32,000 bases of DNA from Candidatus Saccharimonadota bacterium (GCA_963706795.1 OY970170.1:750001-782000); one strand, 5' to 3'; numbered from the stretch's first letter, positions 1,470 through 29,789 are shown. Program-made: numbers and translations. Notes: generated by a model from the letters alone, not told the origin.

Positions 1470-1706
1470 ATGACACCTCAGTGGCGAAAATATATAGCGC
1501 GCCACCCCCAGAAGAACAAACTTCTGGAGATTATTATGAGGATTCAATCTGAAGATTTTGCAGGATTAGATCTAAAGAAACTCAAAGGTTTTGAGAATCT
1601 CTATCGGGTAAGACATGGAAGCATTCGCATCATTTTTATGAAAAAAGATGATGAAAATTACATCGTTGCGGTCGATACTCGATGAGATGTATATAAAAAA
1701 TTCTAA
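1470..1706 (+). CDS. relE: RelE/ParE-family type II toxin
   Basis: LKKLKGFENLYRVRHGSIRIIFMKKDDENYIVAVDTR(G)DVYKKF matches the RelE/ParE core (LkG...YRiRvGdyRiiy...v..i.hR.dvY). Reading TGA 1683-1685 as Gly restores the conserved C-terminal DVY tail. Stop TAA at 1704-1706. Confidence 0.75.
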
Positions 1707-3787: not shown

Positions 3788-3805
3788 ATATTATCTGATT
3801 ACAAA

Positions 3806-3832
3806 TTAGCACTTGTATTATATATGTGCTAA
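3806..3832. promoter_or_regulatory. CIRCE-like inverted repeat (candidate HrcA operator) upstream of clpB
   Basis: TTAGCACTT-N9-ATGTGCTAA against the CIRCE consensus TTAGCACTC-N9-GAGTGCTAA. It lies 19-45 nt upstream of the clpB ATG. Confidence 0.65.
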
Positions 3833-3846
3833 TTCTCTTTGCAACA

Positions 3847-3884
3847 AAAAACCTCCCCCAAAGCTGTATGCGAAGGAGGAGGAT
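3847..3884 (-). terminator. Intrinsic terminator of the 3891-4502 gene
   Basis: The minus strand reads CCTCC...GGAGG followed by TTTT. It shares the GCGAAGGAGG arm with the aspS and xth terminators. Confidence 0.55.
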
Positions 3885-5174: not shown

Positions 5175-6623
5175 TTAGAAAATTTTTGGCTCTCGTGCAT
5201 CGATGACTGATTTCATAGCTTGTTCAAGTACATGGCCGACCAAGAAGACTTTTTCTTCTCCAAGTTGTGGTCAGAGAATATGAAGTCCAACTGGCATTTC
5301 TGTAGTATCGCCTGATCCATCTTCGGGCTTTGCAAATCCTACTGGCACTGAGAGTCCAGGAAGTCCGGCGAGACTTGGTGGTACTGTGTAAATGTCTGCG
5401 AGATACATCTTGAGCGGATCTTCGACTTTTTCGCCGATCTTCCATGCGACAGTTGGTCCAACGGGTCCGACGATGACATCTACTTCGTTAAATGCAGCCG
5501 TAAAGTCATTGCGAATAAGCTCTCGTACGAGCGATGCCTTCTTGTAATATGCGTCATAAAATCCAGAAGAAAGCACAAATGATCCAAGCATAATGCGTCG
5601 TGTTGGCTCAGGACCAAAGGCTGCAGCACGGTTTTTGGCAATATCTGCACCATCTCATTCGATGTGACCAAAGCGCACGCCATCATAGCGTGAGAGATTA
5701 GTTGAAGCTTCGGCTGCCATGATGATGTAATAGACAGCGAGCCCGTATTCACTCGATGGAAGCGTTACTTCTTTGATTGTTGCTCCAAGCTCCTCGAGTT
5801 TTTTGATAGCTTTTTCAATTTCGGTGCGGACTCCTGCGTCGAGACCTTCTCTAAAATATTCTTTAGGGACTCCTACGCGAACTCCAGCGAGATCTTTTTT
5901 ATCCCAAATAGCCGTGTCTACTTTTACTGGCTCTGGAAGCGAGGTTGAATCTTTTGGATCCTGACCTGCAGTGATTTCATAGAGATATGCGGCATCGCGA
6001 ACCGTTTTTGTAAAGGTACCTGGGCTGTCGAGAGAGCTCGCCATGGCGATCACTCCAAATCGACTATTGCGACCATATGTTGGCTTAAATCCAACAATTC
6101 CACACATTGAGGCAGGGAATCGGATGGATCCACCTGTATCGGTTCCAAGTGAAGCAGGTACGAGTCCTGCGGCAACAGCTGCAGCTGATCCTGATGATGA
6201 CCCACCAGGAATGCGGTCTGGAGCCCACGGATTTGCTGTAGCACCAAATGCTGAGTTTTCACCGCTTGAACCCATGGCGTATTCGTCCATGTTGCATGTC
6301 CCGAGGCTTGTAAATCCTGCCTTTTTAAGACGCTCAATAGTAGTCGCGTCATAGGGTGGAGCGAAGTTTTCGAGCATTTTTGATCCCGCGCTTGTACGTA
6401 CATCAATCTGTGAAAACACGTCTTTTACACCAAGTGGAATTCCAGCAAGTTTGCTCGTTGGATCAGCAGTCGGAGCACTCTCTGCAAGGGTTACAAAGGC
6501 ACCAAGTTCAGGATTGAATTTGGCAGCACGGTTTTTAAAGTAGGCAAATACTTCTGCTGGAGTGATTTGTCCGCTCGAAATGAGATCGCGGATGGCAAGA
6601 AGAGAAAGTCTGTGGAGTTCCAT
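5175..6623 (-). CDS. gatA: Glutamyl-tRNA(Gln)/aspartyl-tRNA(Asn) amidotransferase subunit A, 482 aa
   Basis: [25 protein letters not shown] start, and the amidase signature [14 protein letters not shown]. Three track ORFs in the same frame fuse when TGA 5655-5657 and 5271-5273 are read as Gly. Stop TAA at 5175-5177. Confidence 0.93.
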
Positions 6624-6756
6624 GATGCGAATAATTGCTATGAAGTGAGGATTATAGGGGAAAAATATGAAAAATGAAGGCAAAATAATCGCCCCCCAGA
6701 TATGTTGCATTCTCTGAGCTTCTTCATACCATTCTTGCATCATAAATTCATACTCA

Positions 6757-7524
6757 ATGAAACTCATTTCATGGAACGTCAACGGAATCCGTGCCTGCGT
6801 AAATAAGGGATTTCTCGACTATCTCCGCATCGAAAATCCTGATGTTATCGGGCTTCAAGAAGTAAAAGCAAAGGAAGATCAAAACCCCATTCTTGCCGAG
6901 CTTCAAGATCTTGGATATCAGGTTATTTGGAATCACGCCGATCGTCCTGGATATTCAGGAACAGCAGTTTTCTCAAAAATTGCACCAAAATCCATCATGT
7001 TCGCACTCGATAATTCGATCGAAGACGACAACGAAGGCCGCGTAACAACGATTGAATTCCCTGATTTTTACTACGTCACGGTCTATACGCCAAACTCCAA
7101 ACGTGAGCTCGAGCGTCTCGCCTATCGACAGCGATGGGACGTCGCGTTTTATCATTACATGAAGGAGCTCGAGAAGAAAAAACCCGTCATTTTTTGTGGG
7201 GATCTCAATGTTGCACACAAAGAAATCGACCTCACGAATCCTCGAACTAATCGAGGAAATGCCGGATTTACAGACGAAGAACGCGCTGGATTTGAGAGAT
7301 TTTTAGGAGGCGGCTTTGTGGATACATTCCGACATTTTTATCCAGATACTCCCGAGATGTATACGTGGTGGTCAAATTTTGCAAATTCGCGAGCGAAGAA
7401 TGTGGGATGGCGCATCGATTATTTTATGATGTCAGATCATTTTAAAGATAGTCTTCAGAGCGCCTTTATCCGCCCAGATATCATGGGCTCAGATCATTGT
7501 CCTGTAGGCATCGAGATCAATTAA
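6757..7524 (+). CDS. xth: Exodeoxyribonuclease III (AP endonuclease)
   Basis: MKLISWNVNGIRA..., LQEVK, GDLNVAH and SDHCPV are ExoIII/APE1 family motifs. 255 aa. Confidence 0.93.
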   Translation: MKLISWNVNGIRACVNKGFLDYLRIENPDVIGLQEVKAKEDQNPILAELQDLGYQVIWNHADRPGYSGTAVFSKIAPKSIMFALDNSIEDDNEGRVTTIEFPDFYYVTVYTPNSKRELERLAYRQRWDVAFYHYMKELEKKKPVIFCGDLNVAHKEIDLTNPRTNRGNAGFTDEERAGFERFLGGGFVDTFRHFYPDTPEMYTWWSNFANSRAKNVGWRIDYFMMSDHFKDSLQSAFIRPDIMGSDHCPVGIEIN

Positions 7525-7666: not shown

Positions 7667-8122
7667 ATGGTACATCAGCTCCTTACTGATGAGGCTCAAT
7701 TAGAGATAGGTACGCAATTTGCCTCTCTTCAACACGCACTGATGCAAAAGATGTTTCGAGATATCGCACGCATGGTAGCGAATCAAGAAAATATCATGGA
7801 CCACCCCTTGATTTTAGGATTAAGTCCTCATGTGCGTGAAATGGTTGCAAAAATAGATCGCATAAATTTGCTACTCTTTATGAGTAGACTCAAGGAATGT
7901 CACTTTAATATCAAATACACATCAACGGTATCACTCCTTCCAGTGGTGACGCATATGTCAGAAGTCGAAAAGATTTTTGCAAATGTTGTCATGGTAGATG
8001 GACAGAAGACCCTATTTCCTCCATCACTTTTTGAGCCGAGTATTCACGAACGTAATGATTGTGATGACAAGGGTCTCAAAAACGATATAGATTTTGAGTG
8101 CAGCGGTACTATCTCGTATTAG
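7667..8122 (+). CDS. Hypothetical protein, family 1 of island A (151 aa, C-terminal motif DIDFECSGTISY)
   Basis: AGGAG Shine-Dalgarno 6 nt before the ATG, no in-frame TGA, and a terminator downstream. Collinear paralog of 9398-9850. Confidence 0.7.
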   Translation: MVHQLLTDEAQLEIGTQFASLQHALMQKMFRDIARMVANQENIMDHPLILGLSPHVREMVAKIDRINLLLFMSRLKECHFNIKYTSTVSLLPVVTHMSEVEKIFANVVMVDGQKTLFPPSLFEPSIHERNDCDDKGLKNDIDFECSGTISY

Positions 8123-8186: not shown

Positions 8187-8648
8187 TTATGGAAGTTTGA
8201 CGAATGCGGCATTTAGGGCTATTTCTACAGCATCAAACTTCTTGACTACTTCAAGCAATCGGGGCTTGAATTCTTCCCCTTGTGACCACCATGTTACCAT
8301 GGAGACAAAATTGAAGAGTAGACTCTTGATTGGTGTTATCAGTGATTGATGATACTGAATCACGGGGATAATTTGTTCAAGTACATCGAGAAGCAAAGTT
8401 GCATCTGATGGATTGAACATGTTTCTTTCGAGGTTTGTGGTAATCGTCATGAGATGCACTGCAGGTGTGTTCATACCTGCTTTGCAAAGTGTTTCTAAGA
8501 CGAAAGCCACCTGTCCTTGAGCTTCTTTTTTAAATTTTTTGATGTGGATTTCACCAAAATCTGGTGGTTCACATCCGGCTAAAAATGCCGTAAATGCGAG
8601 TTCGTCCTCCTGTGGAGTACACCTCTTGTCTTTTGTGTAGTGACTCAT
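8187..8648 (-). CDS. Hypothetical protein, family 2 of island A (153 aa, predicted helical)
   Basis: GGAGG Shine-Dalgarno 5 nt before the ATG. Ungapped similarity to 8786-9166 (E.H[IF]K.FKK and P[IM]K..L...V..V....P........FDA.E). Confidence 0.7.
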   Translation of the reverse strand: MSHYTKDKRCTPQEDELAFTAFLAGCEPPDFGEIHIKKFKKEAQGQVAFVLETLCKAGMNTPAVHLMTITTNLERNMFNPSDATLLLDVLEQIIPVIQYHQSLITPIKSLLFNFVSMVTWWSQGEEFKPRLLEVVKKFDAVEIALNAAFVKLP

Positions 8649-8785: not shown

Positions 8786-9166
8786 CTATTGTACGACTGG
8801 GGAGATATTTTCCGCAGCGTCGAATAGTGTGGCTAGCCTTCTGATATGAGGACTGAGTTTATGATATTCTTTAATTCCACTGACGTACCAAACCAGCTTT
8901 GTAAGCATCCGCTTCATAGGTTCATAAATTGATGTGAACCTTTGGAGACGCACCATCTCTTCACATCCCTTAAGTAAGTACATGATGTCATCTTCATCGA
9001 AGCCTGTGTTGCTCTCGAGTCTGAGATGAATATCGTGAAATATTGCAGCTGTATCGCTCAATTCTGCTGGCAAATTTGCTTCTTGAATACTCGTTACCAG
9101 TGTTGGAAAGTACTTTTTGAATTCCTTGAAGTGACTTTCAGTTACTTGATCAGGAAGCTGATCCAT
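8786..9166 (-). CDS. Hypothetical protein, family 2 of island A (126 aa, predicted helical)
   Basis: GGAGG Shine-Dalgarno 6 nt before the ATG. Paralog of 8187-8648. Confidence 0.7.
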   Translation of the reverse strand: MDQLPDQVTESHFKEFKKYFPTLVTSIQEANLPAELSDTAAIFHDIHLRLESNTGFDEDDIMYLLKGCEEMVRLQRFTSIYEPMKRMLTKLVWYVSGIKEYHKLSPHIRRLATLFDAAENISPVVQ

Positions 9167-9397
9167 ATCACACCTCCGTTCTGTCTATATTTGTTTGTAG
9201 GATTACTGCTTTGTCGTCGGCAATTACATTCATTTAAGAATGGTTGTCAATTTACACTAAGGTTTTGATAGAGATCTGATTATTAAATATTAATTTAATT
9301 TTTGCTTAAAGAATTAAGAAATAATTAATAGTCGAATGTATACTCAAATATGTCGGAGAATGTTTCTTCGATTCAAACACATACACAGGAGTTCATC

Positions 9398-9850
9398 ATG
9401 GCCGTAACACAAGCTTTGTCTCTGAATACCCAAGTAAATGTTGGTGCAATTGTAGCAGGTGCATTTGATGCCGCCATCAAGAAAGCTCTGCTGGATCTTG
9501 CAACTGCCGCAACCAGTCAGGAGCCTGCCCATCTACATCCTATGATTGCGAGCTTGGGTGCAGATGTACAACAAGGCATTCAATCGATTAGTTCCGATGA
9601 TCTGCTGCAGTTCATCGGAAATCAAGCAGGCTGTGTCTATAGTATAGATTTTCTCCCTGCTGTACCACGTCCGCAGGTGCCGCTCCAATTTGAAACAACC
9701 AAAATCAGACTGGATGTCGAAAAGCCTGCAGAGGGTGCTGAATCAATCTTCTCAGCTGAATTGTTTATCGGTGGTGAAGTTACTTGTGACGTCCGTGGAA
9801 GCACTCGCGGTGATATCGATATCCGCTGCGGTGGCACTATTCGCTTCTAA
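9398..9850 (+). CDS. Hypothetical protein, family 1 of island A (150 aa, C-terminal motif DIDIRCGGTIRF)
   Basis: AGGAG 6 nt before ATG 9398; the track's start at 9350 has no SD. Collinear with 7667-8122: HP[LM]I..L...V...[VI]..I....LL.F......C.[FY].I.[YF] at the same offset, with the same C-terminal motif. Confidence 0.7.
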   Translation: MAVTQALSLNTQVNVGAIVAGAFDAAIKKALLDLATAATSQEPAHLHPMIASLGADVQQGIQSISSDDLLQFIGNQAGCVYSIDFLPAVPRPQVPLQFETTKIRLDVEKPAEGAESIFSAELFIGGEVTCDVRGSTRGDIDIRCGGTIRF

Positions 9851-12850: not shown

Positions 12851-13549
12851 ATGATTCAAGAATACAACGCACTTACCAGAGAGGCAGTCACGGACGGTTT
12901 TTGGAATATCGATATACATACTCCAAAACTTCTCGAGGTATCCGGCAAGGTTGAGCTCTTTGAAAATTGCTCAGGTGAATCCGAGAGAATTATTCGAATA
13001 CATGAGGCCTCTGATGTTATCTATCGTGCATTTTCGCTCGACGCTTCTGTTATGAAAACTCGATTTGAGGTGGTAGGCAGTGCAAAACTCAAGATCCGAG
13101 TTGGTTTTTTTGGTGTGCAAGGTGCCCCTATTAAGTCTGTTATTGAGACCGTGATTATGGGATCTGGCGTAACTGCAGATATTGCGATACTTGGCATTGC
13201 CTTCGATGGTGCTGAGCTCGATATTGATGGCAATCTCACAATCGAATCTGGCTGCAAAGAAGTAGTTGGAGCCATTCATGAATCAAATATTTTTTTAGGA
13301 CAGACGGGCGCGATTCGTGGTGTTCCAACCCTCAAAGTTCGTTCTGATGACGTAAAAGCGAGTCACTCTTGCACGATAGAGCGACTATCTGATGAACATA
13401 GATTTTATCTCGAAGGCCGAGGTTTGTCCGAACACGATGCAAAGTTGACGCTTCTTGATGGCAAGATCGCGAGCCTCTATACAGGACTTCCTGACGAACA
13501 AATTGAATCTATACGATCCATATTTCTTGAGAGTTTTGAATATGCGTAA
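12851..13549 (+). CDS. sufD: Fe-S cluster assembly protein SufD (short form, 232 aa)
   Basis: Beta-helix-like repeats and the C-terminal SHSCTIERLSDEHRFYLEGRGLSEHDAKLTLLDG match the SufB/SufD family tail. An upstream in-frame TAG at 12812 rules out a longer N-terminus. Confidence 0.8.
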   Translation: MIQEYNALTREAVTDGFWNIDIHTPKLLEVSGKVELFENCSGESERIIRIHEASDVIYRAFSLDASVMKTRFEVVGSAKLKIRVGFFGVQGAPIKSVIETVIMGSGVTADIAILGIAFDGAELDIDGNLTIESGCKEVVGAIHESNIFLGQTGAIRGVPTLKVRSDDVKASHSCTIERLSDEHRFYLEGRGLSEHDAKLTLLDGKIASLYTGLPDEQIESIRSIFLESFEYA

Positions 13550-14777
13550 TATCCGAGCTGATTTTCCGATCTTTGTAAAAACACCCGATTTGGTGTTTTT
13601 GGATAGCGCTTCTACGACTCAAAAACCGGCGCATGTGATCGACGGAATGGCCGAATATTTGAGCACGAGTTACGCGAATATCCATCGCGGAGCATATGAG
13701 CTTTCGGAGGCTTCTGAAATGCTCTATGAGGCCTCAAAATCAAAGGTTGCTGGGCTCATCGGAGCTGAGAGCGCACATGAGATTGTCTATACTGCAAACT
13801 CTACCGCAGCGGCCAATCTCCTCGCATCCTCAATTGCGCGCAGTGGATGGCTCAAGAAGGGTGACAGAGTGCTCTTGTCTATCGTTGAGCACCATGCTAA
13901 TATCGTGCCGTGGCTCATCCTCAAACAAGATATCGGAATAGAGGTTGAATTTTTTGGAATTCTCCCAGATTTTTCTATCGATTTTGAGGATTTCGAACGC
14001 AAATGCACTGCAAATACCAAGCTCGTTGCTACGACGCTTGCCTCTAATGTCACTGGAGCGATTTTTGATATTGCTCGACTCTCAAAGTTCCTCGATGTTC
14101 AAAAGATCGACGATCTGAGCCTTCCTTTTACTCGCCCACTTTTGGTGATTGACGGATCGCAGGCGGTTCCGACTTTTAAAGTGGATGTTCGGGCACTGGG
14201 GATCGATTTTATGTTTTTTACGGGGCATAAAATGATGGCGGATTCGGGAATTGGTGTGCTCTATGGCCGAAAAATACTCCTTAAAAATCTCGTTCCATCC
14301 ATCTGAGGTGGGGGTGCGATCAATTTTGTAAATACAGAAAACTTTGAACCTGCGGGGCTTCCATTCCGTTTTGAACCAGGTACTCCGAATATGACGTGAG
14401 CCGTGAGTATGCTTCGTGCTATCGAATATTTTGAGAGTATTGATGGATATGAGGCTATTGTCGAGATCGAGACTCCGCTCATTCAATATGTGCTAGAGAG
14501 ATTTGCGAAACTTGCTCCAAAAGTGCAACTTATAGGTCCAAATATCACTCAAAATAGAGTGCCGGTTTTTGCATTTACGGTCTCGGGAATGCATGCGAAT
14601 GACATTGCTGATATGCTCGCCGAATCGAACATCTGCGTTCGTGCTGGACATCACTGTACTGAGCCACTTCATGCACAACTCGAGATACATTCTTCAGTAC
14701 GAATGAGTATGTTTGTCTATACGACTCGAGCTGATGTTGATGCATTCTTTGAAGCTCTCGAATCCATCATCGCCTAA
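13542..14777 (+). CDS. sufS: Cysteine desulfurase SufS (class V aminotransferase), 411 aa
   Basis: FLDSASTTQKP, HHANIVPW, FFTGHKM (PLP lysine), GTPNMT(G)A, and RAGHHCTEPL (active-site Cys loop). Two TGA codons (14304, 14397) fall at Gly positions. Overlaps sufD by 8 nt. Confidence 0.93.
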
Positions 14778-15338: not shown

Positions 15339-16295
15339 TTAATGATGTTCTGCAGAATGATCATGATTTTCATGATCTGTATGTTCTAAAGCATGATGAC
15401 TTCCCTGACCATCCGCCCGTGATTTATTATCTATATAGGCTCGATACCACAGAGTTTCGACAAAGATTTCGAGCACGCTATTGAGGTGCGAAACAAAGAG
15501 AATAAAGCCGACGAGCAATCCCATCAAAATGACCACAAAGAGGATTTTGATCGATGCAATCGTGATATAGGTAAAGACTGCCGAGAGCAAAAATGGGAAG
15601 AGTATAAACGCGAGAACTGTTAAGATTGTTCGAACATATACCAGAATAAGCGTCAGATAGAGCTTTGCAGTAATACTGAGATTATCAAGTGCCATTTCTG
15701 CTGAAGCCACTACCGCATCAAATGCAGATTTTCCCTCCAGCACGATAAAAAACCGAGTATAGGCGAGCACGATATTTATGACCATGGCAATCATAAAATA
15801 TATGCTCATTCCTAAGAGGATATAGCTCAGATAGGTCGTACCTAAGAGGCGTACCAAAAACAGCGTAAAGGTGATAATCGACAGCAGCTTAAAAAGCGCC
15901 GTGATATTATTTGCCTCAAATACAGGGAGGAAATGCTTGAGTCCTCGCCCGAGGCCGTAGCTGGTGAGTCTTTCGGTTGATCTCGTGCGGTCAACACGGT
16001 CAATGAGTGCAATGAGCCCTCCTTCTGCCAAAGGGGTCACGAGCACAAACATGAGGAAGAACGCTACTGCAGAAATAATAATTTCTGAAAAGTATCCGTT
16101 GTGGACAAAGTTCACAACCAGACTAAAGAACTGATCTTTGAGGCCGAATATATTAATGTAGGTCCACGCTACCTGATAGAGGAGAATGAGCGACAGGTAT
16201 ATGGTCGAGAGGAGAGATGGGAAGAAATTGAATATCTTGATCGCTGTATTTGAACTCGCGACTTCCCATGCCGGAATGACTAAATCGTCTTTCAT
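15339..16295 (-). CDS. Polytopic membrane protein with a His-rich C-terminal tail (HHALEHTDHENHDHSAEHH)
   Basis: 318-aa ORF with about 7-8 hydrophobic segments and stop TAA. No family recognised. Confidence 0.75.
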   Translation of the reverse strand: MKDDLVIPAWEVASSNTAIKIFNFFPSLLSTIYLSLILLYQVAWTYINIFGLKDQFFSLVVNFVHNGYFSEIIISAVAFFLMFVLVTPLAEGGLIALIDRVDRTRSTERLTSYGLGRGLKHFLPVFEANNITALFKLLSIITFTLFLVRLLGTTYLSYILLGMSIYFMIAMVINIVLAYTRFFIVLEGKSAFDAVVASAEMALDNLSITAKLYLTLILVYVRTILTVLAFILFPFLLSAVFTYITIASIKILFVVILMGLLVGFILFVSHLNSVLEIFVETLWYRAYIDNKSRADGQGSHHALEHTDHENHDHSAEHH

Positions 16296-18559
16296 GCTGT
16301 ATTAAGGCCCAAGATTTCTCGGGCATGAGAAGTAAACCAAGACAAGAATCCTCAAACGGATTTTGATTCGATACGGATGATGTGCGTCTCTTTGATATAC
16401 GAAGGCTCGAGAATACTAAAGAGGAAAGTTGCCGATGGAAGTATACGAACCGTATGAATTTCCTTGATGTTTTTGTCTATGAAATATGGCGTGTATTCTG
16501 CCGATATTGGTGCGATGACGGATTCTTTACGGAGCAGTTCTATAATGCGAGTTTCATTACGTTCTCGTGCTTCTTTTGGCATGTCGCGTGACTTGAGATC
16601 TTCGAGGAGGATGTCGAGACTCGGATTGCGAAGCTTCGAAAAATTATATCCATTCTCCGATTGTCCCGAATGAAAATACGGGAAAACATAGGTTCCAAGG
16701 AAGCCGAGATTTACTCCAGTTACGAGGATATCGTAGGATTTATTTCCGTTTTTTGTGGTGTTATTAATAGCATCTGGACTGTTTTCGATATCTTCAATCG
16801 TTGTGGCGATACCTGCACTTTCGAGAACTCCAGATACTTCTTTGGCTGTGTCGGAAACTTCGGGAGTGAGACTCAGCGATCGAATGACGAGCGAGAGTTT
16901 TTTACCTTCTTTGCTGTAGTAGTATTTTTCGTCGAGATTTGCGTATTTGCTTGTTGGAGTGATAGATCCTGTGTTTGTAGGAACTGCGATAGTTCCGGTA
17001 GCAGCCTGTGTGGTTGCACCAGAGAGCGTTGCCCCCGTTGCTAGAGTCATATCAGGAGTTGCTGGAGTCGAAGCTTTTGGAGCTACAGGAATTACTCCAA
17101 AGAGCTCGATTTTTTTAGCTTCTCGTGCTGCTGCGTCGGCGATCATATAGATCGTTATACTCTCTGAGGCTGTCTGCTTTCCAGCTTTTTCAAATGAGAG
17201 AACATAGGTATTTGCTCATTCTTTCAGATTACCGATATCAGTACGGGCTCGGTATGTAAATGTAGTATTTCCAGGATTGAAACTCTTGAGTCGGTATGCT
17301 CCGATATAAACCGCATCAACTCCTGTAGGTACACTTCCTGAGAGAACGATCTCGGATTTGGATTCGGATACGACAATGGTGTCGCGAGATGGTGTAGTAA
17401 AATACGTATTTTGATTGACCTTTTGAGGAGTTGGCTGAGTTGTTGGAGGAATTACTGGGGCAATGACTGGCGGAGGAGTGGCGACAACAGGAGCCGTTTT
17501 TTCCATCTCAAGAAGTGCCTTTTTGCGGAAATATCCGAGTGTAGCAAGACGTTTATCAATATCACCTGAGCCTGTCTCGACGACAGAAGTATCAGTAAAA
17601 AATGGATTTTTTACTGCGTAGTTCTGATTATCAGTCTCAGCAGGGCGGACCTTTGTAATGATTGGTAAAACAATCTGTCTAAGACCGAGAGACACACGCT
17701 CAGTATTGGCAAATGCTGCGATAAAGTCTGGCGTCAAAAATTTACCAGTATCAAATCGTGCTGATGGAGCCTCAGTTATCGAACTATCTGGATAGATAAA
17801 ATTGAGACTGTCAGTTTGAGCGAGGAGGTTTTCTTTGTCGGGATAAAATCGGAGTACAAACTTTGAATACCCAGCTCCATTCCATGGAATATTATTGCGC
17901 ATCAGCGAGATGCGTTCAGCCTGATGAATCGTATCATTGTCGCGCTTCTCTAGGCTGTATGGCCCTGAGAATACAGCATCTTCTGGCTTGATCGTACCGT
18001 TTCTAAATTTTTCGGTAACCGACTTTTTGATGATAGGTGTCGAGAGCAGATGGACAAGTTCACTCGAAGGAGTCGAAGATCGGAACACAATAGCGTCGCC
18101 CTCACGAGTAATTGCAAGTTTTGCGAGACTCGATTGCATCTTTTTGTTGATGTCGGTCTCCGCAAGGAGTGAATAGGTCGCGAGAATATCCTCATCTGTG
18201 ATCTTTTCACCTGTACTCCAAACGGAGCCCTGTTTAAAATAACATCGAACTTCGCCGTAACTCTTAGAGAGATCACAGTTTGCGAGATCTCATTCCATTG
18301 AGCCGGTTTCGATGTTGTATTTAAGAAGACCACGGTACAGGAATCGAAGTGCAAAATCATTACCGCCGTCGAGTCGATATTGTGTAGGATTGAGACTCGG
18401 ATTTCCTCCGATTATTCCAACTGTGAGCGTGCCACCCTTCTCGGGGACAGTCTCTGCACCCTCATAAATGTAGAGCGCAATAATATGTGCCGCCGTAGCG
18501 ACACTGAAAATACAAGCAAGTAGGAATAAGTACTTCTTAATGCGAGAGTAGAGCTGCAT
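16280..18559 (-). CDS. Large extracellular solute-binding-protein family 5 (OppA/NikA-like) protein with inserted Pro/Thr linkers and a beta-sandwich-like module, 759 aa
   Basis: Three track ORFs (18290-18559, 17216-18139, 16352-17146) share one frame and fuse through TGA codons. The N-terminal TM/signal region is followed by KGGTLTVGIIGGNPSLNP...ALRFLYRGLLKYN, which is typical of SBP_bac_5. Reading through TGA 16352-16354 extends the frame to TAG 16280. Confidence 0.8.
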
Positions 18560-18799: not shown

Positions 18800-19159
18800 C
18801 TACTTAAAAAAAACGCTATAGAGTGTATTGAAGAGCGTGAAAATCACAACCGAAATAGCGAAGTTCACAAAGCTTCCTGTCGAAAACGCGACTCACGCAA
18901 TGTTGAGCGCGCTAATAATCTTTTCGAGTAACCCGAGAATTACCGCATTAATGATGATCGAAAAGAGTCCAAATGTGATAATAATCAGCGGAAACCCAAA
19001 AATTTTGAGAATCGGCTTCACAAATGTATTTAAAAGACCAAGTACCACGCCTCAGACAAAATAGAGTTTCCATCCGCCGGTTGCCATGACTTCTGGCAAA
19101 AAGAACTGAATGGCAAACAATATAAGACCGTTCGCGATGATCGAAAGAAATATGCGCAT
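18800..19159 (-). CDS. Phage-holin-4_2 / YvlD-like small membrane protein, 119 aa
   Basis: Missed by the track because of two in-frame TGA codons. The translation MRIFLSIIANGLILFAIQFFLPEVMATGGWKLYFV(G)GVVLGLLNTFVKPILKIFGFPLIIITFGLFSIIINAVILGLL... matches the family core (lglvNtfvkPil..l.lP..ilTlGLF.lviNa). Confidence 0.7.
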
Positions 19160-19250
19160 ATGCTATAGGAAACGTAATACGAGTATATCTTCCACCTCAA
19201 AAATTCAATTGTTTTGAATTTTACGTCCTTTCTTCTACAATTTTGCGCAT

Positions 19251-20018
19251 ATGAAGCAACTTCCAAAAATCCTCCTCGGTGTTGGCGTGATCATTTCTTG
19301 GTCACATTTTTCACCTATTTTTGCTGCGAGCGGAGAAAGTATCGATACTCTTTTGGGTGATCTCGATAAGAGTGAACAGGCTGCGTCAGCTGCGCCGGAT
19401 GATAGCACTCCACAAAATACTGCAAGCTCGCAGAGTACGACAAACTCCAGCACTTCCCCTGCCAATGCTGATACGAGTACGCCGCCAAGTGCTCAAGCAA
19501 TCGATGGAAGCTCCACGACTGCAGACCCATATGCGAATGAAACAAAAAAACTCGAGAGTCAACAAACAGATCCTTACGCGAACGAAACAAAAAAACTCGC
19601 AGGACAGGGAGATACAGCTGCTTCTACTGCTGCAAGCACCCCTTCACCGACTACTAAAAATCCATGCGACGGGGCGACTGCGAGTGACCTCAGATGTGCG
19701 AGCTTTAAATTTGATCCCAATACTTTTGCTCCTGGCTCCGGTCCAGGCTATTACAACGGCGATAAAGAAGGAACTCAGGGTGGTAATACCGTTCAAATGC
19801 TTCGTAAGGTTGCACAGTTTTTACTCGTAGTGGTGAGTACGGGGGCGGTGATCTTTATTACGATTGGAGGTTTCTTGATGGCGATTTCTGCAGGAGATTC
19901 GGATCGTTCAACCAAGGGTCGTACAATCATTACCTATAACATTCAGGCGCTCGTTGTCGCGCTGCTTGCATACGGTATTATTCAATTCGTAATCTGGATT
20001 TTATGAGGTCTAAGCTAG
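19251..20018 (+). CDS. VirB2/TrbC-like (T4SS-pilin-like) protein 1, with a long Ser/Thr/Ala-rich N-terminal region and two DPYANETKKL repeats
   Basis: A signal peptide, a low-complexity region, a Cys pair, then two TM helices around GGFLMAISAGDSDRSTKGR. TGA 20004-20006 is read as Gly. Stop TAG at 20016-20018. Confidence 0.75.
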
Positions 20019-20368
20019 TACTGGCGATTTTTATTCTACTTGTGGCAAATGGGCTTGATTGTGCTCATGCTGCAGGTGCTCTCAATGCTCTGCCTGATGT
20101 GGACAAGGGTATTGGATTGCCATTTCAAAATGAGAGCGTGGGTCCAGCTGGATATATAGGGAAGATCATCAAAGAGGTTATAAAGTACACAGGACTGCTC
20201 GCCATCCTTGCATTGACCTATGGGGGTATCCTCATGATGCTCTCATACGGAGATGATGGCAAGATTAAGGGTGCAAAAAATATCATCACCTATGCTCTCG
20301 TTGGAATAGTGCTTTCTGGCGCAGCATATGCTATCATCGACGCGGTTAATTCCCTTAAAATCAACTAA
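20003..20368 (+). CDS. VirB2/TrbC-like (T4SS-pilin-like) protein 2, 121 aa
   Basis: A signal peptide, then two TM helices around YGGILMMLSYGDDGKIKGAK. Overlaps the upstream gene by 16 nt. Confidence 0.75.
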   Translation: MRSKLVLAIFILLVANGLDCAHAAGALNALPDVDKGIGLPFQNESVGPAGYIGKIIKEVIKYTGLLAILALTYGGILMMLSYGDDGKIKGAKNIITYALVGIVLSGAAYAIIDAVNSLKIN

Positions 20369-20733
20369 TGAAACGTCTTACTACGTTCTTGATCTTAGCT
20401 TTGGGGCTCGTCCTTATGGGTACGGCCTTTGCGGATCAATCTACTGCGGATCTCATGCTCGTTGGAGGTGGTACGTCGAGTGCAATGGCAGATACGAATG
20501 TATCACTCAAGGATAATTTCCTCAAAACCATCCAGGTCTATCTCATCTCGGCATATGGACTCATTGCCGTTGGGATATTTATCTTTATAGGTTTCCGACT
20601 CTTTAATGCTCGTGGAAATCCACAAGAATTCAAACAGGCATGGGTCGCATTTGCGTATACAGTAGTCGGACTTTCTCTCGCTCCGCTCGCTTTTGTCATC
20701 GTACGAATCGTCACTGGCTTTTCTATCTCGTAG
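20368..20733 (+). CDS. VirB2/TrbC-like small two-TM protein 3, 121 aa
   Basis: A signal peptide (MKRLTTFLILALGLVLMGTAFA) and two TM helices separated by FNARGNPQEFK. Its start overlaps the upstream stop (TAATG). Confidence 0.7.
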   Translation: MKRLTTFLILALGLVLMGTAFADQSTADLMLVGGGTSSAMADTNVSLKDNFLKTIQVYLISAYGLIAVGIFIFIGFRLFNARGNPQEFKQAWVAFAYTVVGLSLAPLAFVIVRIVTGFSIS

Positions 20734-20736
20734 CAT

Positions 20737-21297
20737 ATGAATATGATCCGCTTCGTGCTCTTACTTCTCGTAGTTACTCAGACTTTTTTGGGTACGGGTT
20801 TTGCAGTTTTTGCAGATAATCCAGGCATGGGAAGTTACGATGGAACGACACCCGCACCAAAAACAGAAGCCGACCCCTATGCCAATGAGACTAAAAAACT
20901 CAGTGGACAATGAAACCAAGGGGCAAACACTGCAACACCCACAGCAGGATCTGAAGATTCAGGGCCATGTTCGTATCAGGAATGATCTTCGGTATCCGAT
21001 ATGCTCAGTGGTTGTCAGCCAAACAAGGTCATTACTGCGGATAATTACGACTATAAAACTGGTGCGCGAGACCGCATCGTGGCAATTGCCAATCAGATTA
21101 TCATCGTTGGATCACTTCTCTCTATTGGTGCGATCGTCTATGCAGGATTTCTCTATGTAACCTCAATGGGTGACGACGAGCGTATCAAAACCGGTAAGAA
21201 TTCCCTCAAATTTGGAATTATTGGATTTGTGGTCATGCTCCTCTCATTTCCTCTCGTTAATGCCATCGTCCGTCTCTTTTATCAGATCGGAGGATAG
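20737..21297 (+). CDS. VirB2/TrbC-like (T4SS-pilin-like) protein 4, 186 aa, with one DPYANETKKL motif
   Basis: ATG 20737 and the track ORF at 21001-21297 are in the same frame, joined through two TGA codons. It has a signal peptide, a Cys pair, and two TM helices around YAGFLYVTSMGDDERIKTGK. Confidence 0.75.
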
Positions 21298-21299
21298 AT

Positions 21300-22136
21300 A
21301 TGAAGTTCCCTAGATCAGCCGTTATTCTCTTTGCATTTTATGCAGCGCTTTTTAGCGCTCTTTTGCTTTTTGTACAGGTGGCATATTCTCCGATTAGTGG
21401 GAATTCTCCTTCTCAATCTGAGAATATCGAAGCATCAGACCTTCATTTTGATATGACTTCTTCTGGTCTCACAGCTCGTGAACAGGTGATTCAACGTCTT
21501 GAAAGTGCACCCGAAAAACCCCCCTACGAAATCATCCTTCGAGCGACCAGTGATCGTGCGCCAGCACTCAAAAAACTTCTCGAGTCTACGCTCGCCTCAT
21601 CTTTTATATCCGAGCGTGTAACACCGATTTCTGTCGAAATGGTTGATAATCGCACGGAGCCACGTGGGCAGACTTCGAATGCTGGGGTTAGTATTATTGC
21701 TACGATTCCTTCGGATAGCGAATTTCTCAAGGTATTTGTGCACGAATTGGGTCACGTAGTAGATCTACATTTTTTGATGAAAAAAACCTTTTCATCTGAT
21801 CCAAGCGATGAATTTTATGCAATCTCATGGATCGACTACAACCAAAAGAAAAAAGGGATGAATGTCGACGATTTTGTGAGTGGATATGCGCTCACAAACA
21901 AATATGAGGACTTTGCAGAATCATTCGCATTTTATGTATTTCATAATGACGAATTCAAGCGACGTGCCTCTAAAAATGCATCGCTTGCGCGAAAATATAA
22001 TTTCCTCGCGGATAATGTCTTTGCTTCGGCAGAATTTCAGGGTACTTCGTTTGAGGCTAAGAGTGTTCCCAGCTATATTTGGGACACGACCAAAGTTGCC
22101 ATCAAAACAAACAAATATTTGTTTTACCTGCGATAA
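21300..22136 (+). CDS. Membrane-anchored HExxH zinc metallopeptidase (gluzincin-like)
   Basis: An N-terminal TM helix, VFVHELGHVVD (HExxH), and about 55 aa downstream YEDFAESFAFYVF, a candidate third-ligand Glu as in the MtfA/ATLF-like families. GGAGG lies 6 nt before the ATG. Confidence 0.75.
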   Translation: MKFPRSAVILFAFYAALFSALLLFVQVAYSPISGNSPSQSENIEASDLHFDMTSSGLTAREQVIQRLESAPEKPPYEIILRATSDRAPALKKLLESTLASSFISERVTPISVEMVDNRTEPRGQTSNAGVSIIATIPSDSEFLKVFVHELGHVVDLHFLMKKTFSSDPSDEFYAISWIDYNQKKKGMNVDDFVSGYALTNKYEDFAESFAFYVFHNDEFKRRASKNASLARKYNFLADNVFASAEFQGTSFEAKSVPSYIWDTTKVAIKTNKYLFYLR

Positions 22137-22326
22137 ACGCTATACTTCCTCTTGTAAATTTATTCCGCCCTTGCAGATGGAATATCGAGATATCTCTATT
22201 TTGGAGGCAAATCTCACCTCACATCCTTTTTAATCAGAGTCATCCCACTTTTGTGCGTATGTCTCGCGTTCGTAGATAGCTCAGAACCATGTGGTTTACA
22301 GGTATTTACGAGCAAAGCTCGGTTCT

Positions 22327-22869
22327 ATGACTGACCAAAACATTCATTCCTCCTCGGGTGAATTGGGCCAGATCGAGAGACAACAAAACCCTTCCGCTCC
22401 CAAAAAGAACAGAAGAGGTCCACGAAGGCGTCCAAATAAGCGACAGAGTGATTCACTCATATTCGCAAATCAGCCAAATCAGTCCCGATCTCACCAATCC
22501 AAAGAAAAACCTGTTCCAGGTTCTTCGTCCCGCTCCAAACAACCACTCCCCAAACACATCGAAGAGAATCGTTCTCTTATGTCGTCTGCTGGAGTGATGG
22601 TTGCTTCTTTTGTGGTCGATAGTGCGACACGATCCCTTCTCCAACCACCAAGACTCGAGAGTCGAGGGTATTTGCTTCCAAATGAAGTTCGTAATGCTCA
22701 TGCGAAGCTCCAAAAAGCTGCACGTTCCAGTTATGAAGTAACGATCCAAGATATTCCCGATATAGAAGAAAAAGATCTCGTTCGCCTCATCAAACAAGAT
22801 CTCGAGAAATGCTCAGAACAAACACTCAAAAAAACACCACTCATTATCCCACTTATTCATACACTTTAG
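22327..22869 (+). CDS. Hypothetical protein with a basic, disordered N-terminal half
   Basis: ORF in the operon position just before rnj. ATG 22327 is preferred to GTG 22291. PKKNRRGPRRRPNKRQ is low-complexity. No family recognised. Confidence 0.55.
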   Translation: MTDQNIHSSSGELGQIERQQNPSAPKKNRRGPRRRPNKRQSDSLIFANQPNQSRSHQSKEKPVPGSSSRSKQPLPKHIEENRSLMSSAGVMVASFVVDSATRSLLQPPRLESRGYLLPNEVRNAHAKLQKAARSSYEVTIQDIPDIEEKDLVRLIKQDLEKCSEQTLKKTPLIIPLIHTL

Positions 22870-22871
22870 CA

Positions 22872-24845
22872 ATGAATCCTCTAGAAGACGCAAACGCGCA
22901 ACCAAATAGCGAAAACACTCCAGCTCCACAGCCTTCTCAGGCTCGACCTCCTCGTGCTTACGAAGGAAAAAATCCAAAATCTCAAGCTCCGTCTGACAGA
23001 GCTCCAAAGCCTCCACGCGAGCGTAGTGGATATTTTGCAGGAAAAGATACAAAGCCTTCAGCTGGTCCCGAAAAACTCGAGCCAGGCGCGAGCTTCATCT
23101 CGATTCCAAAATGGCGAAATAAGCGCTCATTCCCATTTGTAACACCACAACAGGCGCTCAAAAAATTCCTCGGTTATGAGGAACTCCGCCCAACTCCAAC
23201 ACCAAAGGACGTACTCCGCATTATCCCATTTGGAGGAGTAGAGCAGGTAGGTCTCAACTGTACTGGATTTGAATACAACGGAGAAGTTCTCATCATCGAC
23301 ATGGGTCTCCAATTTGCTGACCAGTATCAGCACGGTATCTCATGCTCGATCCCAGATCTCAGCTATATTAAGGGTAAAAAACTCGCCGGAATCGTCATCA
23401 CTCACGGACATATCGACCATATTGGTGCGATGCCGTACGCAATCAAACAGCTTGGACGAAATGTTCCAACCTTTGCAACATCCATGGCCTACGAGCTCAT
23501 GGCCATGAAGCAGGCTGAAAACAACGCTCCGATGACTAATCTCGAGCGCATCAATCGCAATGTACCTATTCAGGTAGGAGAGCATTTTCAGATTATGCCA
23601 TTTACGGTTGATCACTCAATCCCTGACTCAGTAGGTATTCTCATCGAAACTCCGGTTGGACGATTTGTTCATACTGGTGACTGGAAATTTGATAAAACTC
23701 CACTTCCATATCGTCCAAGTACTGACTACTCACTCCTGGATTCAATCGGAAATCGCGGTGTTCGCGCTCTTCTCTCTGACTCAACGAATGCCCATCTTAT
23801 GGGTTCGTCTATCTCAGAATCCGAAGTCGTTCGCTCGATCGAAGAAATCTTTGAAAAATCAGAAGGACGCGTTATTACTGCGACATTCTCATCGATCATC
23901 GACCGTGTCATGATCATTATCTCCGCAGCCGAAAAATACAACCGCAAGGTCGTGCTTCTCGGACGTGGAATGAATAACTACATGGATATTGCCTTCAAGC
24001 TCGGATATGCTCGTCCAAAGCCAGGAACGATCATCTCTATGGAAGAAGCAAATCGCCTTCCAGACAACGAAGTAACTATTTGTTGTACAGGAGCGCAGGG
24101 TGAGCGTTATGCTGCTCTCATGCGTATCGCAACCGGTGAATCCAAGGACACAAGTCTCCGAGCTACGGATATCGTAGTATTCTCATCTTCGGTTATCCCA
24201 GGAAATGAGCGTGCGGTACAGGGGCTCTTTGATATCATCCTCACACAAGGACCTCGCATCTATCAGTACAAAGAATCCGAAATCCATGCCGGAGGACATG
24301 CCCGTGCCGAAGACACTAAAAAGATGATTAGTCATATTCGACCAGAAGTCTTCATGCCGGTCTACGGATATCCACACATGCTCCACGGTAATGCCCGCAA
24401 TGCCTACGAAGTCGGCTACTCTAAAGAGCGTGTAGTGATCACTCGCAATGGCCAGATCGTCGAATTTACCAAGGACGACTACCGTCTCACAGACATGTTC
24501 GTATCTCACCGTCTCCTTACCGTTGACGGATACATGGTCGGTATCACCAAAGAACCTGAACTCCACGATCGTGAGCAGCTCAAGGCTGGTGGTGTAGTTG
24601 CTGTCTCTATTGCCAAGAAGCCAGGAGATTTCCTCTTCAAACTTGATACCGCAGGATTCCCTGGTTTCCAAAATTTCCCTCGCCTCGAGTCTCGTATTAT
24701 CGATCTCCTCGACAATACCCTCAAAAACGAAATCCAGCGCTTCCAAAACGCCGAAGCCTTCAAAGAATTCGCTTCTAAAAAGGTTGCAGATGTCATATTT
24801 GAAGAGACGGGGAAGGAACCAATGGTTATCGTCCTCGTTCACTAG
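22872..24845 (+). CDS. rnj: Ribonuclease J (metallo-beta-lactamase / beta-CASP) with a ~113-aa Pro/Lys-rich N-terminal extension
   Basis: LRIIPFGGVEQVGLNCTGFEY, ITHGHIDHIGA (HxHxDH), TGDWKFD, DSTNA and HAGGHA motifs. Stop TAG at 24843-24845. Confidence 0.92.
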   Translation: MNPLEDANAQPNSENTPAPQPSQARPPRAYEGKNPKSQAPSDRAPKPPRERSGYFAGKDTKPSAGPEKLEPGASFISIPKWRNKRSFPFVTPQQALKKFLGYEELRPTPTPKDVLRIIPFGGVEQVGLNCTGFEYNGEVLIIDMGLQFADQYQHGISCSIPDLSYIKGKKLAGIVITHGHIDHIGAMPYAIKQLGRNVPTFATSMAYELMAMKQAENNAPMTNLERINRNVPIQVGEHFQIMPFTVDHSIPDSVGILIETPVGRFVHTGDWKFDKTPLPYRPSTDYSLLDSIGNRGVRALLSDSTNAHLMGSSISESEVVRSIEEIFEKSEGRVITATFSSIIDRVMIIISAAEKYNRKVVLLGRGMNNYMDIAFKLGYARPKPGTIISMEEANRLPDNEVTICCTGAQGERYAALMRIATGESKDTSLRATDIVVFSSSVIPGNERAVQGLFDIILTQGPRIYQYKESEIHAGGHARAEDTKKMISHIRPEVFMPVYGYPHMLHGNARNAYEVGYSKERVVITRNGQIVEFTKDDYRLTDMFVSHRLLTVDGYMVGITKEPELHDREQLKAGGVVAVSIAKKPGDFLFKLDTAGFPGFQNFPRLESRIIDLLDNTLKNEIQRFQNAEAFKEFASKKVADVIFEETGKEPMVIVLVH

Positions 24846-25077: not shown

Positions 25078-25485
25078 TTAATTTAATGCAATAATGCCTT
25101 TGATACTTGGAATAAGACCTATGTTACTCAAATTCTTTTTCTTTTCTGAGTATTCATCTGCTAGATCTTTACCAAGGCAACTCTTGACGATATTTTGAAA
25201 GTCTTCGAGTGCTCTTAAATCTTCCCAGCGGCTACTGTTAATACCTATTTTTGCTTCCGTAACATACTCCACAAGAGCGATAATTTGCATTCCTGTTTTA
25301 TCAGCCAAAAGTGTTGCAAAGAACGCTTTAAAGCCAACTGTATACTTTAATTGATTTTTAATCTTATCTCCGATGAGATTAATTTTATCAATTAATGTAA
25401 AATCGGGATATGCATAAAGCGTCATCCTTAAAGCTCTTTGTATTACTCTAATGTATTGCTCTGTATTTTTGTTATTATTTAACAT
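25078..25485 (-). CDS. Hypothetical protein, island B (135 aa)
   Basis: AGGAG 5 nt before the ATG, no TGA codons, AT-rich codon choice, and terminators on both sides. Confidence 0.65.
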   Translation of the reverse strand: MLNNNKNTEQYIRVIQRALRMTLYAYPDFTLIDKINLIGDKIKNQLKYTVGFKAFFATLLADKTGMQIIALVEYVTEAKIGINSSRWEDLRALEDFQNIVKSCLGKDLADEYSEKKKNLSNIGLIPSIKGIIALN

Positions 25486-25704: not shown

Positions 25705-26046
25705 TTACTCTTCGAGATATCCAGTGTCTCTTGCATTCTCTATGAGATCTGCAAGATCTGTTGATGATATTACCTCATATTCTTCTTCTTTGTCATAAGG
25801 GAGAACAATATCCATATCAACAAATTTTACACCGAGTTTCTCTGCAAGTTTTTCGATGAGAACATATACTTTCACGCCGTCATTATCCAAGATAAGATCG
25901 TCGAGAAAATCATGGAACTTATCTAAGTTATCCACACATTCACTGTATAGCTTATTAAGCATATTATGCGCTAGCGTAGTGCGTTGTGTCTTATTTGTTG
26001 CCTCAATTACTGCCTGAACTTCTTGTTTTAATGCATTAATTTCCAT
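25705..26046 (-). CDS. Hypothetical acidic protein, island B (113 aa)
   Basis: AGGAG 6 nt before the ATG, no TGA codons, and an acidic C-terminal half (DKEEEYEVISSTDLADLIENARDTGYLEE). Confidence 0.65.
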   Translation of the reverse strand: MEINALKQEVQAVIEATNKTQRTTLAHNMLNKLYSECVDNLDKFHDFLDDLILDNDGVKVYVLIEKLAEKLGVKFVDMDIVLPYDKEEEYEVISSTDLADLIENARDTGYLEE

Positions 26047-26277: not shown

Positions 26278-26410
26278 GTCTTCCATACGAGAACTGGCCT
26301 GGAAACCAGATTCGGTTGATAACATAGAGAGTCCTGTCATGTGACAGGGAACTCGGGTGGAACCGTCCCTAACCCGTGGGACCCCGAGACCTTACTGAAG
26401 GTCTTTTTTT
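26278..26410 (+). promoter_or_regulatory. T-box riboswitch leader (glycine-specific, unusually compact) with terminator
   Basis: Canonical antiterminator: CUCGGG (26352-57), a 7-nt bulge UGGAACC (26358-64), GUCCC/GGGAC, and CCCGAG (26383-88). A stem III-like hairpin, CCTGTCA-TG-TGACAGG, lies just upstream. Terminator AGACCTT-ACTG-AAGGTCT plus T7 at 26387-26410. A hairpin loop CCUGGAAA (26298-26305) presents GGA followed by A. Confidence 0.75.
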
Positions 26411-26447
26411 GATCCTTCAAACGGGCTATCTCTTCATCTTTTTTGTT

Positions 26448-27900
<1,453 letters not shown>

Positions 27901-29144: not shown

Positions 29145-29789
29145 ATGCGCCTTATTTTTACATTTGTTTCGTGTTTTTTGCTTGCCTGATGTGGGGCAAT
29201 TACTCCAGCAAAGCCAGCTGGTACTGGTGAATACGTAAATTCTACCTATACGAGCACGGTTACTAAGGATGTTGAGAGCGCCGTTTATGGAGCTCCAAAC
29301 TCAAAAGTACAACTCACGGTCTTTTCGGACTATCAGTGTCCTGCATGTATTAGTTTCCACAAAAAGATCGAAGACAAGCTCTGGAAAGACTATATAGATA
29401 CTAAAAAGATCACGGTTACATTCAAGAATTATCCACTCACCATGGTGCACCAAAATGCAGAAGGTGATGCACTTGCAGGACTCTGCGCACTTCCAACTGG
29501 TAAATTCCACGAATTCCGCAATGCGTTGTACGATCTCGAAGACAGCAAGAAGGGCGCTGCTGTTACAGATACCGAACGTGCAGATGTTGCAAAAAAGGCA
29601 GGTATAACTGATCCAGACTTCCAAAAATGTATCACTGAAGCATGGTACCAAAAGAAGCTCACGAGTGAGATGAAGGATGGTGATCGCCTTGGATTACAGT
29701 GAACACCTTCCATCTATTTGGGTGACACAATCGTCAATTTTAGTACTCCAGAGGAATTCTTTGGAATATTGGACGCGGCAGCGAAATAA
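29145..29789 (+). CDS. DsbA-family thiol:disulfide oxidoreductase lipoprotein, 214 aa
   Basis: MRLIFTFVSCFLLA(G)CG has a lipobox L-A-G-C whose Gly is TGA 29187-29189. Also FSDYQCPACISFH (CxxC) and LQ(G)TPSIYLG, where the Gly of the cis-Pro loop is TGA 29700-29702. Stop TAA at 29787-29789. Confidence 0.85.

Follow-up and report, generated by a model that had tools for sequence, protein, structure and literature searches.

A conserved Gracilibacteria gene cassette of four type IV secretion pilin-like proteins and a putative M34-like metallopeptidase

What do four small pilin-like genes in tandem, leading straight into the gene of a metallopeptidase, have to do with one another? The question is raised by positions 19251-22136 of a 32,000-nucleotide (nt) stretch, hereafter the window, filed under Candidatus Saccharimonadota bacterium (GCA_963706795.1 OY970170.1:750001-782000). 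An initial annotation had read this locus as tandem VirB2/TrbC-like pilin paralogues followed by a membrane-anchored HExxH metallopeptidase, and as a candidate for a non-canonical surface system. Here, we found the arrangement again in 61 other genomes at species level, which is more than chance would give. We propose, with moderate confidence, that it represents a conserved Gracilibacteria four-pilin operon for a mixed type IV secretion system (T4SS) pilus or conduit, in which the peptidase would act on the exposed N-termini of the pilins.

All five open reading frames (ORFs) lie on the + strand where they had been placed, but solely if TGA counts as sense, a point on which the initial annotation was silent. 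The pilin-like proteins are P1 (19251-20018, 255 amino acids (aa)), P2 (20003-20368, 121 aa), P3 (20368-20733, 121 aa) and P4 (20737-21297, 186 aa), and the fifth gene (21300-22136) encodes a membrane-anchored zinc metallopeptidase of 278 aa. The described junctions were confirmed: P1 and P2 overlap by 16 nt, P2 and P3 share the A of a TAATG, and gaps of 3 nt and 2 nt separate P3 from P4 and P4 from the peptidase.

The source genome uses code 25, in which TGA is read as glycine (Gracilibacteria/Absconditabacteria type). This follows because housekeeping ORFs merge and because the TGA codons of ClpB fall on conserved glycines and not on tryptophans. The ORFs for ClpB, GatA, SufS and SBP_bac_5 (1703-3787 (-), 5175-6767 (-), 13392-14777 (+) and 16280-18559 (-)) are each broken into 2-3 pieces in the standard code and become full-length once TGA is sense. 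In alignment with E. coli ClpB, three of the five TGA codons of the window gene correspond to conserved glycines (Walker A GEPGVGKT, IVEG, YGARP) and none of the five to tryptophan. tRNA and Rfam scans of the whole window gave no match, and no UGA-decoding tRNA-Gly gene was seen within it. For the pilin-like genes, the code matters directly. In the standard code P1 ends at 20006, and P4 is split into two same-frame pieces (20737-20913 and 21001-21297). With the TGA at 20004-20006 read as glycine, P1 extends to 20018 and gains a tail, WIL-G-GLS, that resembles the orthologue ends WIVGGIN and WILGTAS; translation of 20737-21297 reads through two in-frame TGA codons of P4 (20911-20913 and 20983-20985). 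The public gene call for P4 (P0263) is a 98-aa stub, against 186 aa under code 25. Since standard-code calling truncates P4, surveys can undercount or mis-size such pilin arrays. Public gene calls on the window and on related contigs are often truncated or carry tryptophan at TGA, and some homologues read HELWH for HELGH.

Is the five-gene arrangement kept in other genomes? A scan of one genome per species gave 132 species with a relative. We took the best 80 loci, translated them again with TGA as sense and ran a hidden Markov model (HMM) built from the four window pilin domains over them; upstream counts were limited to the 68 species-level loci that have 2.5 kb or more of upstream sequence. 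Exactly four pilin-domain genes lie directly upstream of the peptidase, on the same strand, in 61 of the 68 loci, and none of the 68 has one, two, three or five of them. The synteny of the HExxH gene with pilin genes in relatives, on which the initial annotation had staked its proposal together with similarity to VirB2/TrbC-type pilin models, was thus found, as was the similarity itself (see below). The median gaps across the five genes are only 4, 5, 9 and 6.5 nt, the last being that between P4 and the peptidase, and the peptidase homologues of these loci go down to 31% identity with the window protein. Downstream of the peptidase, 53 of 65 loci have RNase J; three related loci (L001, L002 and L004) show the order in full, with small T4SS_pilin genes leading into the peptidase and RNase J after it. 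In eight loci the quartet and the peptidase are kept while RNase J is absent downstream; the cassette therefore stays together when its neighbourhood changes. The 1.06 Mb of flanks contained one other pilin-domain match, a solitary fifth gene beside leucyl-tRNA synthetase, 6 kb from the quartet (L078, 14173-14622 (-)).

The four genes are tandem and homologous, as had been noted, but they are not loose duplicates. When each pilin was compared across genomes by BLAST, all 660 of the 660 top-10 matches per position fell on the same position, for each of the four positions. Two proteins from the same position share a median identity of about 40%, against about 29% for different positions, even when both come from one genome. 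By this measure, P1 to P4 are four ancient orthologue groups in a fixed order, each with its own extracellular motif. All four combine a signal peptide with a two-helix hairpin and differ in what lies between. P1 has a long Ser/Thr/Ala/Pro-rich extracellular insert, a Cys pair and an F-x-F-D-P-N motif, which in the orthologue group belongs to the extracellular segment F.(F/I)D(P)N..SP(S)..Y..G. The mature N-terminus of P2 carries the motif LP.P...GLPF, and its hairpin has the loop YGDDGKIKGAK; in P3 the conserved segment is L.V.GG..SA...NFLKTIQ and the hairpin loop is ARGNPQEFKQAW; P4 has a conserved C-x(12-16)-C-x-P loop. In P1 and P4, low-complexity inserts of very variable length lie between the signal peptide and the group-specific segment. 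A peptide, DPYANETKKL, occurs twice in P1 (19518-19547 and 19569-19598) and once in P4 (20874-20903), and the copies show synonymous differences in their DNA. We rejected it as a signal for cleavage or sorting, because the orthologues of other genomes, including the closest relative (L005), lack it.

Are these proteins T4SS pilins? Against the T4SS_pilin family PF18895 (curated cut-off 26.6 bits), P1, P2, P3 and P4 score 26.4, 24.7, 32.3 and 28.9 bits, such that P3 and P4 lie over the cut-off and whole-protein P1 and P2 slightly under it; the P1 domain alone reaches 29.3 bits. Among 48 orthologous domains, PF18895 was found in 44 at E ≤ 0.01 (best E 3e-12), and the TrbC family PF04956 weakly in 6 (best E 1.3e-4). 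The VirB2-family likeness claimed for the four proteins is supported by these matches. All four also match the NCBIfam Mbov_0395 pilin-like conjugal transfer family under its cut-off, P4 scores 32.7 bits against NF045849 (under the cut-off of 40), and public sources label homologues as 'Type IV secretion system pilin'.

The topology fits the same family. By hydropathy, each of the four has one signal-like segment at the N-terminus and two hydrophobic ones towards the C-terminus, in agreement with the signal peptide and C-terminal transmembrane (TM) pair read previously. An AlphaFold2 model of P3 forms a hairpin of helix 47-80, loop 81-84 and helix 85-120 at a predicted local distance difference test (pLDDT) score of 63.5; a single-sequence homologue search with P3 gave four matches, and the alignment behind the model is therefore shallow. 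Together, hydropathy and model reproduce the PF18895 layout of a signal peptide and two hydrophobic helices around a short polar loop. The loop consensus common to the pilin groups is G-[DN]-x-E-K-x-K-K-A-K. Given this charge and the positive-inside rule, the loop would be cytoplasmic and both termini would lie outside. A motif that had been proposed for three of the window loops, GG.L(M/Y)..S.GD(D/S)....(K/T)G(K/R), holds in part: P1 fits it fully, but P4 has AG for the leading GG, and P2 lacks the C-terminal (K/T)G(K/R) part.

The fifth protein matches PF15890 (Peptidase_Mx1) with 30.3 bits over residues 141-226 (cut-off 25.6). A TM helix at the N-terminus (about residues 5-29) is followed by a disordered linker and then by the globular catalytic domain; the AlphaFold model has a pLDDT of 87. 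The motifs noted before are in place, HELGH at residues 148-152 and EDFAESF at 203-209, and hydropathy confirms a single N-terminal hydrophobic segment. The predicted catalytic residues H148/E149/H152, Y196 and E203 are invariant in 26 homologues, and in a profile-to-PDB sequence search they align with the catalytic segment of anthrax lethal factor, where we take the corresponding Tyr and Glu to be Y728 and E735. Foldseek on the model returned lethal factor (E 2e-4, probability 1.00) and the Pro-Pro endopeptidase (PPEP) PPEP-3 (E 0.019, probability 0.98) and no other significant match, with TM-scores of 0.35-0.45 and sequence identities of 14-16%; Pfam ATLF (PF07737) scored 23.9 bits, under its cut-off of 27.4. 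We thus regard the protein as probably an M34-like zinc peptidase by resemblance to lethal factor and the PPEPs, sharing with M34 peptidases the HExxH and the Tyr and Glu of a Y..TN..E.FAE.F segment. It differs from the PPEPs, secreted Firmicutes enzymes, by its membrane anchor. The N-terminus has no lipobox Cys; the TM helix is followed by a conserved Ser-Pro, which suggests an uncleaved anchor. The enzyme forms a small, lineage-restricted family. A word index returned 306 homologues, all named ones of which are Gracilibacteria or 'gcode 4' bins, and a search of 1.84 billion representative proteins gave 177 matching clusters at E < 1e-30 and 1376 at E < 1e-3.

Does the link hold when viewed from the pilins? 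We performed the reciprocal test, a P4 profile search followed by six context look-ups. Orthologous matches again had the peptidase, preceded by four pilin domains in L089/L090 and L092 (code 25) and by two in a 1.3-kb contig (L085), the sole result of a metagenome scan with close P4 sequences. Distant PF18895 arrays are larger, with 8, 7, 6 and at least 5 genes in L086, L087, L091 and L088, and have neither this peptidase nor VirB4 within 4-5 kb. The peptidase is therefore not a general requirement of the T4SS_pilin family. In the sample examined, it is linked to the quartet and not to T4SS_pilin arrays in general, and the co-occurrence that the initial annotation suggested testing holds for the quartet (61 of 68 loci) and fails for the four larger arrays. 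Just 5' of the eight-gene array in L086, in a single case, lie genes for an Rce1-like (CPBP-type) intramembrane protease and a DUF5667 protein (2614-3867). An SBP_bac_1 gene directly precedes the 6-7-gene arrays of L087 (1269-2666) and L091 (1480-2865); in the window, the SBP_bac_5 gene lies three genes upstream of the pilins on the opposite strand.

The cluster had been presented as an open candidate, but multi-pilin arrays from candidate phyla radiation (CPR) bacteria have already been published. In 3,035 Patescibacteria genomes, Quinonero-Coronel et al. 2025 (PMC12102498) looked for matches to PF18895 and PF04956 and reported 441 VirB2 arrays of 2-11 genes, commonest in Microgenomatia and Saccharimonadia, which they read as variation possibly aiding adaptation to different host strains; no metallopeptidase partner is mentioned for these arrays. 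An essential six-gene VirB2-like array of the Saccharibacterium Ca. Southlakia epibionticum is described in a review (PMC12857230; Wang et al. 2023). With four genes, the cassette falls under the array definition of at least two tandem PF18895/PF04956 genes in Patescibacteria. It shares with the published arrays, the Southlakia cluster included, tandem genes for signal-peptide and two-TM proteins that match PF18895/PF04956, low identity between copies, a host-dependent CPR bacterium and a chromosomal location outside mobile elements. In contrast to their variable size, the cassette has exactly four genes in fixed-order orthologue groups wherever it occurs (61/61), it stands in one operon with an M34-like zinc peptidase, and no T4SS gene was found in the scanned parts of its 32-kb window. 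The best-supported description is that of a Gracilibacteria-specific, fixed four-subunit version of the published Patescibacteria VirB2-like arrays, with a peptidase added.

How might such a module work? We propose that P1 to P4 are exported via the Sec pathway with cleavable signal peptides, and that each would span the membrane as a helical hairpin whose two ends face outward and whose short charged loop lies inside. Most likely, the four pilins then join in one mixed structure, either a pilus-like fibre or a conduit in the membrane, which would be driven by a Patescibacteria monoderm-type T4SS whose VirB4 ATPase would be encoded elsewhere in the genome. Because the number and the order of the genes are fixed and each group has its own motifs, a mixed assembly is likely and a set of interchangeable variants unlikely. 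The peptidase, held on the outer face of the membrane by its single N-terminal helix, would most likely cut or trim the exposed N-terminal parts of the pilins for maturation, for length control of the low-complexity inserts or for release. The pilins are plausible substrates because they share an operon and a membrane side with the enzyme, because their N-terminal inserts vary, and because there is a precedent: PPEP-1 and PPEP-2, both M34 enzymes, have as substrates surface proteins whose genes adjoin their own (PMC12828418).

Comparison with better-known pilins sets bounds on this scheme. VirB2/TrbC/TraA pilins are matured by signal peptidase, by a TraF-type serine peptidase and by cyclisation. 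Common to them and the window proteins are the signal peptide, the helix-loop-helix hairpin and the charged loop, and some of these systems have a dedicated processing peptidase. However, the window enzyme is a zinc metallopeptidase and not a LepB/TraF-type serine peptidase, a canonical system has one major pilin where we find four, and canonical pilin genes sit in a T4SS gene cluster, whereas no T4SS component was found in the window ORFs that were scanned. Moreover, the C-terminal tails of the window pilins are only 2-6 residues long, which makes TrbC-type C-terminal trimming unlikely. The logic of several conserved, non-redundant pilin paralogues in one operon and one fibre is also that of type IV pili and type II secretion systems, with one major and four minor pseudopilins. 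Since both protein family and assembly machine are unrelated, we draw on these as an analogy alone.

Several observations weigh against the proposed mixed pilus or conduit and its processing. The likeness to canonical TrbC/VirB2 is weak: the HMM comparison suggested by the initial annotation succeeded for T4SS_pilin, with two proteins over the cut-off and two just under, but PF04956 matched none of the four window proteins at E ≤ 1. A 48-domain pilin profile searched against PDB sequences found designed helical proteins and, not significantly, TrwL (E 0.32). Foldseek with the P3 hairpin found nothing significant in the PDB, the top match being the ATP synthase c subunit (E 1.1); a bare hairpin at pLDDT 63 cannot discriminate, and this result bears on VirB2 homology in neither direction. 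Neither an ATPase nor any other part of a T4SS turned up in the scanned ORFs of the window or in the roughly 8-kb flanks of L001, L002 and L004. We know of no Patescibacterium in which a pilus has been shown experimentally. For the enzyme, in seven of the 68 species the peptidase is intact and the adjoining 8 kb or so (roughly 3 kb in L068) contain no pilin-domain gene; the enzyme can therefore persist without neighbouring pilin genes. No cleavage-type motif common to all four pilins was found. The reading of the pilins as substrates is weakened by these seven species, by the arrays without the enzyme and by the lack of a common motif.

The absence of VirB4 from the window had been taken to make the cluster a candidate for a non-canonical system. 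We do not follow this step, because T4SS parts are dispersed in Gracilibacteria, in which VirB3 and TrsD lie mostly away from virB4 and VirB6 is absent (PMC12102498), and because Table S1 of the same study gives 'Presence of VirB4: Yes' for an assembly named like that of the cassette-bearing locus L014.

Does the peptidase act on the pilins at all? Alternatively, the five genes could form a co-expressed host-interaction module in which the enzyme cuts other surface targets, such as the host or prey envelope, the cell's own adhesins, an S-layer or peptides for uptake. We regard this as the most serious competitor, possible but clearly less probable than pilin processing. The species with an intact enzyme and no pilin genes nearby would be expected under it, as would the pilin arrays at other loci that lack the enzyme, and lethal factor and the PPEPs themselves act on non-pilin proteins. 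Indeed, the best PDB sequence match is 9urd, a 'substrate import-associated zinc metallohydrolase lipoprotein' (E 0.039), and the protein scores 38.3 bits against NCBIfam TIGR04549, but this is far under the cut-off of 75. To the Bacteroidota PF15890/TIGR04549 proteins it is alike in its PF15890 match over cut-off and in the aligned segment of catalytic motifs, but the match covers about 80 residues at the active site, and the window protein is anchored by a TM helix, lacks a lipoprotein signal and does not stand in a SusC/TonB context. What argues for the pilins as partners is the tight linkage, found at 61 of 68 loci and with a median of 6.5 nt between P4 and the peptidase, and its persistence where the downstream neighbours change.

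A second alternative concerns the assembly. The hairpins could stay in the membrane as a hetero-oligomer, a ring, channel or platform, that stands in for undetected T4SS parts or has nothing to do with T4SS. Four distinct subunits conserved in a stoichiometry-like fixed number, the position of the quartet away from virB4 and the reported absence of VirB6 homologues in Gracilibacteria (PMC12102498) would suit such a complex, and the lone near-match of the hairpin model, the c subunit mentioned above, is ring-forming. Gram-positive-type T4SSs are normally without pili (PMC12102498, PMC12857230), and whether the T4SS of monoderm Patescibacteria builds a pilus, and from what, is given as an open question in the review (PMC12857230). 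On the other hand, the sequence family is that of T4SS pilins, and the long, variable Ser/Thr-rich N-terminal inserts of P1 and P4 suit a surface fibre better than a buried complex; we therefore hold a purely membrane-embedded oligomer to be rather unlikely. We would place in the same doubtful range a bolder form of the mixed assembly, in which an obligate four-subunit VirB2-type structure, the first heteromeric T4SS pilus or conduit, replaces the VirB5/VirB6-type parts that are not found in Gracilibacteria and has its surface shaped or switched by the M34-like peptidase. If true, epibionts and predators that take up host material would possess a protease-controlled contact organelle.

Could the adjacency be without functional meaning? 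The same housekeeping neighbours recur in related genomes, with RNase J after the peptidase in most loci (53/65), and the gene order might have been inherited in a slowly rearranging core block of Suf genes, SecG, pilins, peptidase and RNase J. We consider this very improbable, because the five genes stay together while both flanks vary and peptidase identity falls to 31%, and because gaps of a few nt and overlaps indicate co-translation. Least tenable of all, and contradicted here, is a stock of pilin genes that could replace one another to vary antigens or host range, an idea put forward for the VirB2 arrays of Bartonella/Anaplasma and of other Patescibacteria (PMC12102498), which the identity of about 29% between paralogues and the unequal N-terminal inserts would fit, but which predicts gain, loss and shuffling of copies where we found exactly four in 61 of 61 genomes with any, 660/660 positional orthology and an own motif at each position.

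Why does a fixed quartet matter? The T4SS genes and a VirB2-like array are essential for epibiotic life in the sole genetically tractable Patescibacterium, according to the review (PMC12857230). The module described here is a natural case of exactly four non-redundant pilin-family subunits with a peptidase, and about 90% of the Gracilibacteria genomes examined at species level keep it as a unit. Its constancy argues against a 'variable repertoire' reading, at least within Gracilibacteria, and it offers concrete targets in the few co-cultured relatives.

The cassette is flanked by genes that we regard as context. Upstream and divergent lies a gene for a Phage_holin_4_2-family membrane protein (18800-19159, - strand; PF04020, 63.7 bits), which also neighbours the cassette in L001 and L004. 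In the divergent intergenic region, 10 nt 5' of the P1 start, a promoter-like site TTGAAT-16-TACAAT (19214-19241, + strand) matches the consensus, in a region that has 11 such sites against 7.3 expected, so that the match alone is weak evidence. Between the peptidase stop and the next ORF, no terminator-like site was found on the + strand. Downstream follows a protein with an RNase_J_C domain (22291-22869, + strand; PF17770, 42 bits). This 192-aa ORF overlaps the start of the full-length RNase J gene (22809-24845, + strand). In several related genomes, the C-terminus of RNase J itself carries a peptide like the C-terminal segment of the small ORF (IPDIEEKDL...PLIIPLI), and in L019 the small ORF stands alone downstream of the peptidase.

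Further along the window, a DsbA/thioredoxin-like protein with a lipoprotein-type N-terminus (29145-29789, + strand) would suit extracytoplasmic disulfide formation, for example in the conserved Cys pair of P4. The glycyl-tRNA synthetase gene (about 26373-27900, + strand) appears to be split over two frames, changing near 26850, with the C-terminal part starting at about 26833. Its counterpart in the related locus L001 is undivided and encodes 483 aa; a sequencing error, a frameshift or decay to a pseudogene could account for the split. Finally, several ORFs of 110-170 aa have neither an in-frame TGA nor a Pfam match (7667-8122 (+), 8187-8648 (-), 8786-9166 (-), 9350-9850 (+), 25078-25485 (-) and 25705-26046 (-)). 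The stretch at 25-26 kb has a G+C content (GC) of 0.34, against about 0.44, and these ORFs may be lineage-specific or acquired genes.

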